IMG/VR virus record: IMGVR_UViG_2529292835_000021
Reading direction: 5' to 3' (one strand)
Origin: a virus
Lineage: Duplodnaviria; Heunggongvirae; Uroviricota; Caudoviricetes
Length of the DNA: 8,007 nucleotides
Shown here: positions 19 to 8,007 of the stretch, in pieces
How the letters are laid out: each line of letters starts with the position of its first letter
Position numbering within the stretch: position 1 is the stretch's first letter
Notes under the pieces: generated by a model
The model's input: only the letters and a program-made list of their open reading frames with translations
Database searches by the model: none
What the model was told of the DNA's origin: nothing
Program-made: the position numbers and the translations under genes

Positions 19-37
19 GTGCTTTCCCCGCCTCGCC
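19..37. other. cos: cos cohesive-end site, P2/P4 type (19 nt)
   Basis: Plus strand gtgctttccccgcctcgcc is the reverse complement of GGCGAGGCGGGGAAAGCAC, which I recall as the 19-nt cohesive end of P2/P4-family phages. It lies ~165 bp beyond the psu stop, as expected for P4. Confidence 0.7.
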
Positions 38-847: not shown

Positions 848-1348
848 TCATTCCAGACGCAGCGAATATGATTGTGTTTTTAACCGTACTGGCGGCAGTT
901 CCTGTTTTTCATGCAGGCGTTCTGCCAGTTCGTCCGGTGTGACCGGGCGGACAATGAAGCGGTTGATGGTCTGAAGCGTTTTAAACACCAGACCACATCC
1001 CGGATCCGTGCACACATAAAAACGCTCGGTGACTTCCTGAGACAGACGCCGCGATGTTCTTGACAGTGCAAGGCCTTTACATCTCCGACAACAATATCCG
1101 GTAACAAGCATTCTTTTCGGGCGTTTCATACTGCCGGAGGCTGACGTCAGTGAATCGCGGTATCTCTGTTTGCCTGAAATGTATTCCATTCCTGAATCTT
1201 TACTGTCAGAGAAAAAGCTTTCACTCGCTTCAAATGTCGCAGAGCAATAAATATTCCGGCACTGTGCAATCATTATCTTGGTGCCATCGTCCATGAAATG
1301 TGCGCGACGGGTGTGAGCAACATGTCCACACGACGGGCAGTAAATCAT
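848..1348 (-). CDS. delta: Delta late-gene transcriptional activator (tandem Ogr-like zinc-finger protein)
   Basis: 166-aa ORF with two Ogr-like Cys-rich modules (CPSCGH...CRNIYC and CCRRCKG...CTDPGCG), the duplicated-Ogr architecture and the length of P4 Delta. Its ATG overlaps the sid stop (tcat at 1345-1348, ATGA on the coding strand); GAGGA RBS upstream. Confidence 0.88.
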   Translation of the reverse strand: MIYCPSCGHVAHTRRAHFMDDGTKIMIAQCRNIYCSATFEASESFFSDSKDSGMEYISGKQRYRDSLTSASGSMKRPKRMLVTGYCCRRCKGLALSRTSRRLSQEVTERFYVCTDPGCGLVFKTLQTINRFIVRPVTPDELAERLHEKQELPPVRLKTQSYSLRLE

Positions 1349-2529: not shown

Positions 2530-2631
2530 AATCCCCCCTGTTGCGTCTGCCAAAAATATTCACAAAATAAAGCGCTACCCGAAGCCGGACGGACTTATCC
2601 GGTGCTGTATGGACATTAACGAGGTAGCCCG

Positions 2632-2898
2632 ATGCAAGCTGTTTTTTCTTCCCCGTCTCCCGCCCCTGTGACGCCACTGATGCCGCTGCCGGACATCACG
2701 CAGGAGCGTTTTTTACGTCTGCCGGAAGTGATGCACCTGTGCGGCCTGTCACGCTCGACCATCTATGAACTCATCCGTAAGGGGGAATTTCCGCCGCAGG
2801 TGAGTCTTGGCGGTAAAAATGTGGCCTGGCTGCACTCTGAAGTCACCGCATGGATGGCCGGCCGCATTGCCGGACGCCAACGGGGGTATGACGCATGA
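2632..2898 (+). CDS. vis: AlpA-family small DNA-binding regulator (Vis-like late-promoter regulator / excisionase-like)
   Basis: 88-aa ORF with the AlpA-type HTH core ([44 protein letters not shown]); GAGG RBS 7 nt upstream. First gene after the PLL-like site, as for P4 vis. The true start could be the internal Met (MPLPDITQ...). Confidence 0.65.
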
Positions 2899-3449
2899 TG
2901 ATGCCTGTTCTGCAAAAAGTCCCTTTTTCTGGCTTGCCTTTTTCCGGCATTTGCGGATATAGTTTTTCCGCTGCCGCAAAATCGGCAGCCGGGCGTGAGA
3001 ACCCGAGTATGTTATCGGCGACATATGACGCGCCATGCGTCTTTTTTTGTGTCGTTGCTTCGGCACACCTGTTTTTCTGGCTGTGGTTTTTAAACCGTAG
3101 CCTCTGTCAGATAATGGTGGTCCGGGCGGGGCAGCCTTCGGGCTGGCCGGTTTCCGATAACGCCGGTATTCTCACCCCCGTCTGGGCTATCGCCATCGAG
3201 CGTGAGAACTCCGGCGATAGCGTCATTTACGCTGTTATCGGAGGTTGCCTTATGGCTACGACCCTTACCCCCTCACACCCTGAATTTGTCTTTGTGTTTG
3301 CGGCTGTCCGTCGCGCAGACCGTCATCCCCGTATCTGTATGCTTCGCACCGTCGCCGGTGATGAACGCAGCGCCCGCCGTTCCCTTGTCCGTGACTATGT
3401 GCTCTCCCTTGCTGCCCGTCTGCCGGTGGTGGAGGTGTCCCGTGCGTAA
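2895..3449 (+). CDS. eta: eta-like long ORF, in frame with and containing kil
   Basis: Frame 3 is open from ATG 2895 (atgatgatg, overlapping the vis stop at 2896-2898) to 3449. It spans the PLE-like promoter and immunity-RNA region and ends as the 65-aa kil ORF. This matches the published description of P4 eta as a long ORF starting upstream of PLE with kil as its terminal part. Low-complexity N-terminal translation, so whether it is translated here is unproven. Confidence 0.45.
2934..2963 (+). promoter_or_regulatory. Candidate sigma70 promoter (PLE-like): TTGCCT-N18-TATAGT
   Basis: -35 ttgcct (2934-2939) and -10 tatagt (2958-2963) with 18-bp spacing; predicted start ~2970, about 25 nt upstream of the seqA-like block. 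Located inside eta and upstream of kil, as described for P4 PLE. Confidence 0.4.
3105..3185 (+). ncRNA. cI: Candidate CI-type immunity RNA containing a seqB-like block (boundaries approximate)
   Basis: seqB-like block 3154-3175 (CCGATAAC-gccggta-TTCTCAC) is antiparallel-complementary to an upstream block at 2995-3018 (GTGAGAA-cccgagtat-GTTATCGG) and a downstream block at 3202-3215 (GTGAGAA-ct-CCGGC). A 10-nt direct repeat gcgtgagaac occurs at 2993-3002 and 3200-3209. A GC hairpin with TTCG loop (cagcc-ttcg-ggctg, ~3131-3143) precedes seqB. Ends of the RNA cannot be set from sequence. Confidence 0.4.
3252..3449 (+). CDS. kil: Kil-like small protein (65 aa; Icd-like cell-division inhibitor family)
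   Basis: ATG at 3252 with GGAGG 7 nt upstream gives exactly 65 aa ([26 protein letters not shown]...), the length reported for P4 Kil. It is the first ORF with a strong RBS downstream of the PLE-like promoter and is nested in the eta frame. Confidence 0.6.
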
Positions 3450-3729
3450 TAAAAAAGCCCCTCAGACCGTCTCAGCACGTCATGACGCCCGTGAACACCT
3501 CAGCATTGAGGCTTACCATAAGCTCAACCGCGCCAGCGCCGTATCCCGGTTTGTTGGGGGTGATTTGATTCACCGTGAACTCTCCGGCCTGCATCAGCTC
3601 TACATTCCGCATATTTTCAGCTACCTGAATGAAGATATTGATTTTGTGCTGAATGAGCTGAAAGCCAAAGGCCTGTGCCGCGATTTTCTCGCCCAGCAGA
3701 AAGACCGGGGAGACAGGACGCATGTTTGA
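3442..3729 (+). CDS. epsilon: Epsilon-like protein (P4 E, antirepressor of helper prophage), 95 aa from a GTG start
   Basis: Frame-1 ORF; the first plausible start is GTG 3442 with GGAGG (3431-3435) 6 nt upstream, giving 95 aa. It overlaps the kil stop by 8 nt and its stop overlaps the orf151 start (atgtttga at 3722-3729). Position matches P4 epsilon; the name rests on synteny and my recollection of size. Confidence 0.55.
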
Positions 3730-4177
3730 TTTTCCCCAGCCCGGTGAGATTTACCGTTCTGCCGGTTTTCCCGATGTGGCCGTGGTCGGCATTCTGGAAG
3801 ACGGTATTCCGTGGGAAATGCCGTACCGCTGCCCGGACATTGTCTGGAACCCGTACCGCCGTAAATTCAGTATCCTTGTACGTATCCTCGCTGACGGGCG
3901 CACCACAGACATCCCGCTGGGGCGTTTTCTGCGGGAATTTACCTGTGACCGTCCTGACCTGTTTAAACGCAGCCCCGTAAACCGGCATGCGGTACTGAAA
4001 GAAATGGCCGGAGACCCGGAATTACAGAAATGGCGGGAGAAATATCTGGATATTTACCCGCAGGACACTGTTCCGGCCAGCCGGGCGGCACCGGTGGCGC
4101 GGGAATGGCGGGAAATTCCCCGCACGGAGCCTGACCCGGAAATCACCCCGGATAACAGTTACCGCAATTATCTGTAA
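3722..4177 (+). CDS. Conserved P4-family protein of unknown function (orf151 equivalent)
   Basis: 151-aa ORF, coupled to epsilon by an 8-nt overlap; same length and position as P4 orf151, between epsilon and cnr. Confidence 0.6.
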   Translation: MFDFPQPGEIYRSAGFPDVAVVGILEDGIPWEMPYRCPDIVWNPYRRKFSILVRILADGRTTDIPLGRFLREFTCDRPDLFKRSPVNRHAVLKEMAGDPELQKWREKYLDIYPQDTVPASRAAPVAREWREIPRTEPDPEITPDNSYRNYL

Positions 4178-4312
4178 TTAAAAAACGACACCCGAAAAAT
4201 TAAATGTGCGTATTCGCGCAGGGATACGCACGTCTTCAGGAGACGCAGATATGCCTTATCAGTTAATGCAACCGGCACGGAATGCAGTCATCTGTCACAG
4301 GGAGGAAAACAA

Positions 4313-4647: not shown

Positions 4648-6979
4648 ATGAAAATGAACGTAACCGCCACCGTCAGCCATGCGCTCGGCCACTGGCCGCG
4701 TATTCTCCCGGCGCTGGGGATTCAGGTGCTGAAAAACCGTCATCAGCCCTGTCCGGTCTGTGGCGGGAGTGACCGCTTCCGTTTTGATGACAGGGAGGGG
4801 CGCGGCACCTGGTACTGCAATCAGTGTGGTGCCGGTGACGGCCTGAAACTGGTTGAAAAGGTGTTTGGTGTTTCCCCGTCCGACGCGGCCGCAAAGGTGG
4901 CTGCCGTGACCGGCAGCCTGCCACCGGCTGACCCGGCAGTGACGACCGCCGCCGTTGCTGAAACAGACGCTGCCCGGAAGAACGCCGCCGCACTGGCACA
5001 AACCCTGATGGCGAAAACCTGTCCCGGAACCGGTAACGCCTACCTGACCCGCAAGGGCTTTCCCGGCCGGGAATGCCGGATGCTGACCGGCACACACAGA
5101 GCCGGTGGCGTGAGCTGGCGCGCCGGTGACCTTGTGGTGCCACTGTATGACGACAGCGGCGAACTGGTTAACCTTCAGTTAATCAGTGCTGACGGCCGTA
5201 AGCGCACCCTGAAAGGCGGACAGGTCAGGGGCACCTGTCACACCTTGAAGGACAGAATCAGGCCGGAAAACGTCTGTGGATAGCGGAGGGATACGCGACC
5301 GCACTTACCGTCATCACCTGACCGGTGAAACGGTGATGGTGGCGCTTTCTTCCGTGAACCTCCTTTCTCTGGCCAGCCTTGCCCGGCAGAAGCATCCGGC
5401 CTGTCAGATTGTCCTTGCTGCTGACCGTGACCTCAGCGGTGACGGCCAGAAAAAAGCCGCCGCAGCCGCAGATGCGTGTGAGGGCGTTGTTGCCCTGCCG
5501 CCGGTCTTCGGTGACTGGAATGATGCCTTCACGCAGTACGGCGGGGAGGCCACCCGTAAGGCCATTTACGATGCCATCCGGCCACCGGCTGAAAGCCCGT
5601 TCGACACCATGAGCGAAGCAGAGTTTTCCGCCATGAGTACCAGCGAAAAGGCCATGCGTATCTATGAGCATTACGGCGAGGCGCTCGCGGTCGATGCCAA
5701 CGGCCAGCTTCTGTCCCGTTATGAAAATGGTGTCTGGAAGGTGCTGCCGCCACAGGACTTTGCCCGGGATGTGGCCGGGCTGTTTCAGCGTCTGCGCGCG
5801 CCGTTCTCCTCCGGGAAGGTGGCCTCCGTGGTGGACACCCTGAAGCTGATTATTCCGCAGCAGGAAGCCCCCTCCCGCCGCCTGATTGGCTTTCGTAACG
5901 GCGTGCTCGACACGCAGAACGGCACGTTCCACCCGCACAGTCCGTCACACTGGATGCGCACCCTGTGCGATGTGGATTTCACCCCGCCGGTGGAAGGGGA
6001 AACGCTGGAAACCCACGCCCCCGCGTTCTGGCGCTGGCTTGACCGTGCCGCCGGTGGCCGTGCGGAAAAACGCGACGTGATTCTGGCCGCACTGTTTATG
6101 GTGCTGGCAAACCGCTACGACTGGCAGCTCTTTCTGGAGGTGACCGGTCCCGGCGGCAGCGGCAAAAGTATCATGGCCGAAATCGCCACCCTGCTGGCCG
6201 GGGAGGATAACGCCACGTCGGCCACCATCGAGACGCTGGAATCCCCGCGTGAACGTGCCGCGTTAACTGGCTTCTCACTGATACGCCTGCCGGACCAGGA
6301 AAAATGGAGCGGCGACGGAGCCGGACTCAAGGCCATCACCGGCGGCGATGCGGTGTCCGTTGACCCGAAATACCGGGATGCGTACTCCACGCATATCCCG
6401 GCGGTGATTCTGGCCGTCAACAATAACCCGATGCGCTTCACCGACCGCAGCGGCGGCGTGTCACGCCGGCGGGTGATTATTCACTTCCCGGAACAGATAG
6501 CCCCGCAGGAGCGCGACCCGCAGCTTAAAGACAAAATCACCCGCGAGCTGGCAGTCATCGTGCGTCACCTGATGCAGAAGTTCAGCGACCCGATGCTCGC
6601 CCGGTCACTGCTTCAGTCCCAGCAGAACTCAGACGAGGCACTGAACATCAAACGGGATGCCGACCCGACGTTTGATTTTATCGGCTATCTGGAAACCCTG
6701 CCGCAGACCAGCGGCATGTATATGGGGAACGCCAGTATCATCCCGCGCAATTACCGTAAATACCTCTATCACGCCTATCTGGCCTACATGGAGGCAAACG
6801 GCTACCGGAATGTACTCAGTCTGAAAATGTTCGGGCTGGGGCTGCCGGTGATGCTGAAGGAATACGGACTGAATTACGAGAAGCGCCATACCAAACAGGG
6901 GATACAGACCAACCTGACGCTGAAAGAGGAAAGCTACGGCGACTGGCTGCCAAAATGTGACGACCCTGCAACAACCTGA
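4648..6979 (+). pseudogene. alpha: alpha primase-helicase (Zn-binding primase N-term, TOPRIM, D5_N, P-loop helicase, C-terminal DNA-binding), frame-disrupted by two 1-nt frame changes
   Basis: N-terminal 211-aa ORF (4648-5283, frame 1) has the CPVCGG...CNQCG zinc motif. The C-terminal 567-aa ORF (5276-6979, frame 2) has the TOPRIM DxD (VLAADRDLSGDG) and Walker A (GPGGSGKS). The TOPRIM glutamate motif AEGYATALTV is encoded only in frame 3 (5283-5312). Stitching 200 + 22 + 555 codons gives 777 aa, the length I recall for P4 alpha. AAGGAG RBS before ATG 4648. Confidence 0.85.
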
Positions 6980-6995
6980 CCATCATGACTCATCT

Positions 6996-7020
6996 GACCG
7001 GCATCTGCAGGTCTTTTTTT
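6996..7020 (+). terminator. Rho-independent terminator-like hairpin after alpha
   Basis: gaccggc-atct-gcaggtc (6996-7013; 7 positions, one G-A mismatch) followed directly by T7 (7014-7020), 17 nt after the alpha stop codon. Confidence 0.45.
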
Positions 7021-7036
7021 ATCCCTGAATTCCCCG

Positions 7037-7336
7037 AAGGTGAACAATCCACTGTTCACCCTTCACCGTATATTCACCCGTTATCACACTGAAATTAAAA
7101 GAGAAAAATGAAAGGTGAACAGTGTGAACAATCAAATCAAAAAAAACTTTTTTTCTCCCTGTGTGATTTCAGTACGGGGGATTAATCACCGGTATGAGTC
7201 ACACCGGCAGAATGCCGGAGGTGAAGAATCGAATGTTCACCCTTCACCCATTATTCACCACCTATCAAACTGAAATAAAAGGAGAAAACAGAAAGGTGAA
7301 CAGTGTGAACAGTTCTTTCGAAAAAAAACTTTTTTC
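7037..7336. repeat. crr: crr-like cis replication region: two ~119-bp direct repeats with 181-bp period, each carrying TGTTCACC/GGTGAACA iterons
   Basis: Unit A 7037-7155 and unit B 7218-7336 align along their length with scattered mismatches, separated by a 62-bp spacer. Each has GGTGAACA/TGTTCACC copies (A: 7039-7046, 7053-7060, 7114-7121; B: 7234-7241, 7295-7302) plus degenerate variants and ends in an A8-C-T6/7 tract. Matches the P4 crr description (two ~120-bp repeats ~60 bp apart). Confidence 0.8.
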
Positions 7337-7596
7337 TTATTTTTAATTGTGCGAAAAACAAGCGATGCGCGCAGTGTGTATAGATATGTGTATAGTTATA
7401 TTTTTTGAATATAATAATCTATTATAAATCAATGCGTTAACTTGCAATATTCATTCCTATTATCGCACCATTAAAATCAAAGAGTTACCCCATATTTAAA
7501 TACACCACGTTTCCTCCTGTGCCGCATTTGTGCCATTGTAACCTTGGCAATTCATCAAAATACTGTTCTGACATCAGGCAGTGCAGGTGCAGCTAT

Positions 7597-8007
7597 TTAA
7601 ACCAATTGCTGCCGCCATTCTTTGACGTAGTCAATCAGGGCGCGGAGCTTTGGTGCAATATTGCGACGCTGTGGGAAATACAGATAGAAGCCCGGAAATT
7701 GTGGAAGAAAGTCATCAAGCAGCGATACAAGCTTACCGCTTTCAATATATGGCCTGAAAGTTTCCTGAGTGGCAATTGTTATTCCTCCGCCGGCAAGAGC
7801 CAGCCTCAACATCAGACGCAGATCATTAGTCGTAATCTGCGGTTCGATCGCAAGGTCGAAAGTTCTCCCGTTTTCTTCAAATGGCCAGCGATAAGGCGCA
7901 ACCTCCGGGGACTGACGCCAGCCGATACACTTATGGGTATTTCCCCCGGAGGCGAGAAAGCGCTCTCCACGCCCGGCCGCAAGGATCAGGACGACGGGGG
8001 CAGGCAT
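7597..8007 (-). CDS. LysR-family transcriptional regulator, C-terminal effector-binding domain (partial; N-terminal HTH beyond window edge)
   Basis: Translation has typical LysR C-terminal features (RLMLRLALAGGGITIATQETF...GKLVSLLDDF...PGFYLYFPQRRNIAPKLRALIDYV); stop at 7597-7599. The ATG at the window edge is probably a coincidence, since LysR proteins are ~300 aa. Convergent with alpha and outside the P4-like block. Confidence 0.8.
   Translation of the reverse strand: MPAPVVLILAAGRGERFLASGGNTHKCIGWRQSPEVAPYRWPFEENGRTFDLAIEPQITTNDLRLMLRLALAGGGITIATQETFRPYIESGKLVSLLDDFLPQFPGFYLYFPQRRNIAPKLRALIDYVKEWRQQLV

Follow-up and report, generated by a model that had tools for sequence, protein, structure and literature searches.

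An AT-rich segment beyond crr as the attR of a P4-like satellite prophage in the tRNA-Thr gene thrW

The AT-rich segment at positions 7337-7596 of an 8,007-nt stretch of viral DNA (the whole of which is hereafter named the window) very probably spans the attR of a P4-like satellite prophage in the 3' end of the tRNA-Thr gene thrW (probability about 0.95), and the integration site of the satellite lies between proA and a LysR pseudogene with the adjoining paoD. The positions, the homology boundaries, the empty sites, the conservation of the repeats and the cognate integrase at the other end of related elements were all observed directly. Previous studies showed that tRNA genes are seats of P4-like satellites (PMC10121019), that these satellites are common in E. 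coli and have exchanged integrases (PMC8628076), and that thrW is an established integration hotspot (PMC7545054). On the present reading the segment is an ordinary att junction at an already known hotspot, and only its arm-repeat consensus and its single-G core are mildly new; a literature search found no detailed description of a thrW-type P4 attP.

The junction can be pictured from the free form of P4, in which alpha, crr, attP and int follow in that order. Integration splits attP and leaves crr and one attP arm at the int-distal end of the prophage. That arm is 7337-7454, where an IHF-like site accompanies a tandem pair of 12-nt arm-type repeats (TGTGTATAG); the core, in which the integrase of the element exchanged strands with thrW, is 7455-7471, and chromosomal DNA occupies 7472-7596. 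The TGTGTATAG repeats would be bound by the arm-binding domain of the integrase, the arm would be bent by IHF, and the terminal GCACCAT would be the place of strand exchange. The features of the window on this reading are as follows.

19-37, minus strand: cos, the exact 19-nt P2/P4 cohesive-end sequence (0 mismatches to GGCGAGGCGGGGAAAGCAC), on the other side of the satellite body
2632-2898, plus strand: AlpA/Vis-like helix-turn-helix protein of 88 aa (Phage_AlpA PF05930, E 7e-21)
4648-6979, plus strand: alpha primase-helicase gene, in two ORFs (4648-5283 and 5276-6979)
7034-7337, plus strand: crr, the cis-required replication region, the last block in common with P4
7337-7454, plus strand: crr-side arm of the satellite attP, delimited by the stop of other-site elements at 7335/7336 and by the host or empty-site start at 7454/7455
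7375-7398, plus strand: two tandem 12-nt arm-type repeats (TGTGTATAGATA, TGTGTATAGTTA), recognised by offset conservation, likeness to P4 and int-side copies
7427-7439, plus strand: match to the IHF consensus (AATCAATGCGTTA), a possible DNA-bending site between the arm repeats and the core, its columns partly conserved among arms
7455-7471, plus strand: attR copy of the att core, TCCTATTATCG-CACCA(T); compared with the thrW 3' end, TCCTATTATCGGCACCA(T), it lacks one G
7472-7596, plus strand: host DNA from thrW to the LysR pseudogene, within the one-piece 100% empty-site match
7597-7935, minus strand: LysR-family pseudogene without its N-terminus, a host gene (LysR_substrate, 106-207 of 209)
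7986-8007, minus strand: 3' end of paoD, a host gene (L001 17087-18043, minus, mapped from the NZ_CP025862 stretch)

Satellite body and gene order in the closest genome

Pfam domains of Psu, Ogr/Delta, AlpA and the primase-helicase supported the satellite body in the window. The sequence GGCGAGGCGGGGAAAGCAC, which we take to be the cos sequence of P2 and P4, gave 0 matches in any of 200 shuffles. By analogy with P4 Vis, the AlpA/Vis-like protein is a candidate excision directionality factor. The crr consists of two ~120-nt direct repeats (7034-7156 and 7215-7337) and is 95.5% identical to P4 crr (X51522 4291-4623). Compared with the intact 777-aa gene of the closest genome, alpha contains two 1-nt deletions, at ~5243 and ~5312, which reflect either a decaying satellite or an assembly error; with alpha frameshifted, the prophage may no longer replicate.

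The best whole-window match in the collection was the E. coli genome NZ_CP025862 (its stretch is named L001), with 98.4% identity over the whole window and 100% identity over 6900-8007, where window position 6900 maps to L001 16001. The gene order there is proA, thrW, a tyrosine int, a HEPN-domain cargo gene, psu, delta, sid, an AlpA-like gene, alpha, crr, the segment, the LysR pseudogene and paoD, so that the far end of the element, ~10 kb upstream, carries thrW and a P4-family integrase. Aligned over its full length, the L001 Int beside thrW shares 39% identity with P4 Int (E 5e-103) and contains the domains Arm-DNA-bind_3, Phage_int_M and Phage_integrase. The window itself starts just past the cargo gene, short of int and thrW; Int and the int-side arm were read in L001, and ARAGORN found zero tRNA genes in the window. 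The sequence-only reading had offered an int-distal end at a non-leuX site as one explanation of the missing integrase, and this was borne out: the site is thrW, the closest genome carries thrW and the integrase at the opposite end, and precise empty sites exist.

Positions 1-11 of the window were unaligned to the closest genomes, whose matches start at 9-12. They lie at the margin of the variable cargo DNA that separates cos from int and that includes the HEPN-domain gene in NZ_CP025862, and the cargo in the genome of the window may be different.

Homology boundaries, empty sites and the host flank

All the features listed in the sequence-only reading were found where it had placed them, and the abrupt shift to AT-rich DNA after crr was confirmed by a GC content of 0.28 in 7301-7500 versus 0.5-0.65 in the body of the element. 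The spread of matches to window 6500-7600 showed that P4-like elements at other chromosomal sites cease to match at 7335/7336, with the similarity of P4 itself ending at about 7334, and that genomes without the element begin to match at 7454/7455. Homology does break off at about 7336/7337, and the two boundaries, there and at 7454/7455, place the junction inside 7337-7596 as had been supposed. Together with the empty sites they indicate that 7337-7454 is a 118-nt block specific to the thrW-type integration module.

Comparison with an empty-site allele, which the sequence-only reading had proposed, was made with a synthetic empty site of 503 nt in which proA-thrW was joined to window 7471-7750. 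The whole construct was found uninterrupted and at 100% identity in real E. coli genomes, and it was covered to at least 80% in 948 genomes. Since precise empty sites exist, the DNA from 7471 onward is chromosome. The possibility that 7337-7596 was conserved internal sequence of intact P4-like elements holds for one part of it: 7337-7454 is conserved as an attP arm of the thrW type, and 7472-7596 is host DNA.

The host flank has a history of its own. At 84-87% identity, positions 7455-7538 match the lambdoid thrW phages HK542, mEp213, SfX and HK75 in the int 3' end and attP, and the first ~67 host nucleotides (7472-7538) are what is left of the attP arm of an older lambdoid prophage and of the 3' end of its int. 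In strain Eco889 (L006 3018-3235) the same host DNA continues into an integrase pseudogene. Even the "empty" thrW sites are thus scarred by an older lambdoid prophage.

The convergent LysR gene noticed earlier was found as a fragment on the minus strand from 7597, and its K-12 counterpart is presumably yagP. Its N-terminus is missing on the paoD side and the EDL933 gene is full length, indicating that the truncation is unrelated to the att junction. An ORF of 136 aa at 7597-8007 was considered as a fusion protein and rejected; it arises where the reading frame of the LysR pseudogene runs on, out of frame, into the end of paoD.

These boundaries also bear on the idea that the AT-rich block has nothing to do with the satellite, being either intergenic or regulatory DNA of the host or foreign DNA, and that it matches thrW by chance. 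A GC content of 0.28 is typical of foreign or intergenic DNA, and the match to thrW is no longer than 16 nt, with one gap; yet 7337-7454 is missing from empty sites, accompanies alpha/crr and the cognate Int across genera beside different host flanks, and gives way to host homology exactly at 7455, and the LysR gene turns its 3' end to the segment, so that the segment is not the LysR promoter. Such a coincidence is scarcely credible, and the block is better read as the arm of an attachment site.

Attachment arm and its likeness to P4 attP

The motif tgtgtatag, reported to occur twice, is the repeat TGTGTATAG at 7375-7383 and 7387-7395 in a tandem 12-nt unit, and the two units at 7375-7398 are candidates for recognition by the N-terminal arm-binding domain of Int. 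Exact TGTGTATAG occurs four times in the 33-kb L001, all within ~170 bp of the two att junctions, against about 0.25 copies expected under a uniform base model by our estimate, which makes the repeat more than chance. The int-side arm of L001 bears TGTGTATAGGAT and TATGTATATGTT in tandem 113 nt past the core, and an inverted CTATACACA lies over the int ATG, with a one-mismatch copy within int.

This arrangement was compared with the P4 attP as annotated in GenBank X51522 (six 12-bp arm repeats; int at 2607-3926). In P4, crr ends at 4291, followed by tandem arm repeats at 4151-4174, the 20-bp core at 4078-4097 and tandem repeats at 3942-3965; an inverted arm repeat at 3915-3926 covers the int ATG, and a further repeat lies within int at 3621-3632. 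The two sites share their place between crr and int in the free form, tandem 12-bp repeats on the crr side with a spacer to the core of 53 bp in P4 and 56 nt here, tandem repeats on the int side at 112 bp and 113 nt from the core, an inverted repeat over the int start codon, a core made of a tRNA 3' end, and an integrase with the same three domains. They differ in the target (leuX in P4, thrW here), in the core (20 bp in P4, TCCTATTATCG(G)CACCA here), in the arm repeat ((T/A)GGGGGCA(T/C) in P4, TGTGTATAG here) and in the spacer from crr to the repeats (117 bp in P4, 38 nt here), and the attR core here is one G short of the tRNA. The marks of a P4-type attachment site are thus present: crr and an arm stand at the int-distal prophage end, arm repeats occur on both arms with an inverted copy at the int start, and the cognate integrase, judged on the L001 Int, has an N-terminal arm-binding domain. 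Site-specific integration and excision are indicated indirectly, by the precise empty sites and by the recurrence of arm and core beside many different host flanks. The canonical leuX-specific P4 attP (core GAGTCCGGCCTTCGGCACCA, GGGGGCAT-type arm repeats) was not found here, where only GCACCA is in common with it.

A pattern search for the first repeat, 55-85 nt and the core found the arm with its core in the genomes of 14 species and in 28 IMG/VR contigs, the first repeat and the core being invariant by construction. The genera include Pectobacterium, Erwinia, Enterobacter, Citrobacter, Kosakonia, Scandinavium, Raoultella and Klebsiella. Two properties that the pattern did not demand were shared by the 39 distinct arms: the second repeat, TGTGT(A/G)TA(G/A), stands at a fixed 12-nt offset in 39/39, and the total length is 96-98 nt. 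The surrounding arm sequence diverges freely, and the flanks downstream of arm and core are widely different. In the contigs that reach that far, an integrase gene lies ~10 kb upstream of the arm, and its product shares 81-100% identity with the Int of L001; int and the alpha-crr-arm block lie at opposite ends in 11 contigs.

The other explanation in the sequence-only reading, that the att/int side had been deleted or rearranged and crr now abuts unrelated AT-rich DNA, is highly improbable. It could draw on the absence of int and a tRNA gene from the 8-kb window and on the frameshifted alpha as a sign of some decay, but a recognisable thrW core stands at the expected distance from the conserved arm repeats, the arm is collinear with the 39 homologous arms of other genomes and contigs, thrW and int are at the other end in the nearest genomes, and crr and int at opposite prophage ends are what the P4 map already predicts. 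Nothing was found in support of a deletion or rearrangement, and related elements keep int beside thrW ~10 kb upstream; an ordinary attR remains the preferred reading of the segment.

The consensus WATCAANNNNTTR is matched just twice in the 8-kb window (7427-7439 and 7475-7487; 0.23 expected), once in the arm between the repeats and the core and once on the other side of the core. As possible IHF sites around the core they are suggestive only, weakened by the local AT-richness. A motif (A)AAAATGAACGC, kept ~10 nt upstream of the first arm repeat in most arms of other genera, is diverged in the window (AAAAACAAGCGATGCGC, about 7350-7370); it may be a binding site of the AlpA/Vis-like protein. 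An inverted repeat joining the left end of the arm to the core (7341-7357 / 7460-7476) showed no conservation among the other arms and was treated as chance. An Rfam scan of 6900-8007 gave nothing near any gathering score, and a promoter/terminator scan of 6900-7700 gave no excess over shuffles.

E. coli O157:H7 EDL933 offers a close parallel: behind a P4-like primase come an arm homologous at 85% identity, the single-G core and the host flank seen here. It differs in the divergence of the arm, in an additional gene of 957 nt that separates alpha from the arm, and in its full-length LysR neighbour. The EDL933 element at the thrW locus is, we presume, the Sp2 of Sakai. O157 Sakai has a single P4-like prophage, Sp2 (PMC2669165).

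The lambdoid thrW phages HK542, mEp213, SfX and HK75 and the cryptic K-12 prophage CP4-6 use the same tRNA gene and hotspot. However, in K-12 CP4-6 the last 46 nt of thrW are duplicated, from the anticodon loop, whereas the satellite shares only the last 17 nt; the lambdoid phages have a site type related to that of CP4-6, and the satellite instead combines a P4-family Int with P4-style arms. The CP4-6/lambdoid type of attP, a 46-nt core with int transcribed toward it, was not seen in the satellite attR.

Several loci may carry more than one element. The IMG/VR contig L046 has, at about 7366-8325, a TGTGTATAG arm with a single-G core and directly thereafter a second int, with the repeats GGGGGAT/GGGGGTAT. 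This second int is only 59% identical and its arm has P4-type GGGGG repeats, indicating that the repeat sequence tracks the integrase type; the contig gives the appearance of a tandem pair of satellites at thrW. A similar-looking downstream flank occurs in Pectobacterium colocasium (L012 633-770), with no int detected there. In L002, at about 1237-1283 (minus-strand reading), a 46-nt thrW 3' fragment without the 5' half of the tRNA stands directly before the int-side arm of a satellite. This fragment is an attR of the lambdoid/CP4-6 type, which points to the stacking of two elements at thrW, one a lambdoid prophage and the other a P4-like satellite.

The single-G core and the meaning of the junction

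No tRNA att core had been recognised in the segment because the earlier search aimed at leuX only, and one is present at 7455-7470. In attL the thrW 3' end reads ...GACTCCTATTATCGGCACCA and is followed by TCCCAAC, and window 7455-7470 reads TCCTATTATCG-CACCA, followed by TTAAAATC. The window thus holds a 16/17-nt copy of the thrW 3' end TCCTATTATCGGCACCA with one G missing, and the GCACCA that had been noted at 7465-7470 is its tail. A core common to the 3' end of the tRNA gene and to both prophage ends is what a P4-type attachment site has.

The single G in place of the GG of thrW recurs in every P4-like attR examined in E. coli, including that of EDL933. Across the loci of the pattern search it was found at 12/14 genome loci and 26/28 viral-contig loci, 38/42 together, with many different downstream flanks. 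GG is retained in attL, and the attR of K-12 CP4-6 also has GG. Strand exchange to the left of the missing G would have given attR the GG of the host, so the single G would belong to attP and the exchange would fall in GCACCAT. The chances seem about even that, as these core sequences would have it, the attP core is natively single-G and strand exchange is confined to the final 7 nt, GCACCAT, comprising the CCA end and one base beyond; the recurrence at 38/42 loci is compatible with a single-G attP and short of proof. An intact attP with crr-side arm, core and int-side arm was not found in phage records, which gave P4 crr and int fragments only; an IMG/VR search with a core-plus-int-arm pattern gave two matches, both attL-type and neither an intact attP, and a metagenome scan for intact attP gave 0 matches.

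The attR of strain C5 (L007) has a 23-nt deletion at window positions of about 7465-7487, so that the core loses its end and the host flank its first bases, and its alpha is interrupted by an IS21-family element. This satellite copy is clearly immobilised.

If the attP is indeed single-G, no functional part of the tRNA would ever be replaced by DNA of the element, and attP and attB would be offset by one base in the left half-site of the core. For annotation, the right boundary of the satellite is fixed at 7455-7471 and its integration site can be named as thrW. The AT-rich block is read as a functional att arm and not as a deletion scar, and the TGTGTATAG consensus with its fixed 96-nt geometry could offer an easy way to mark out satellites of the thrW type.
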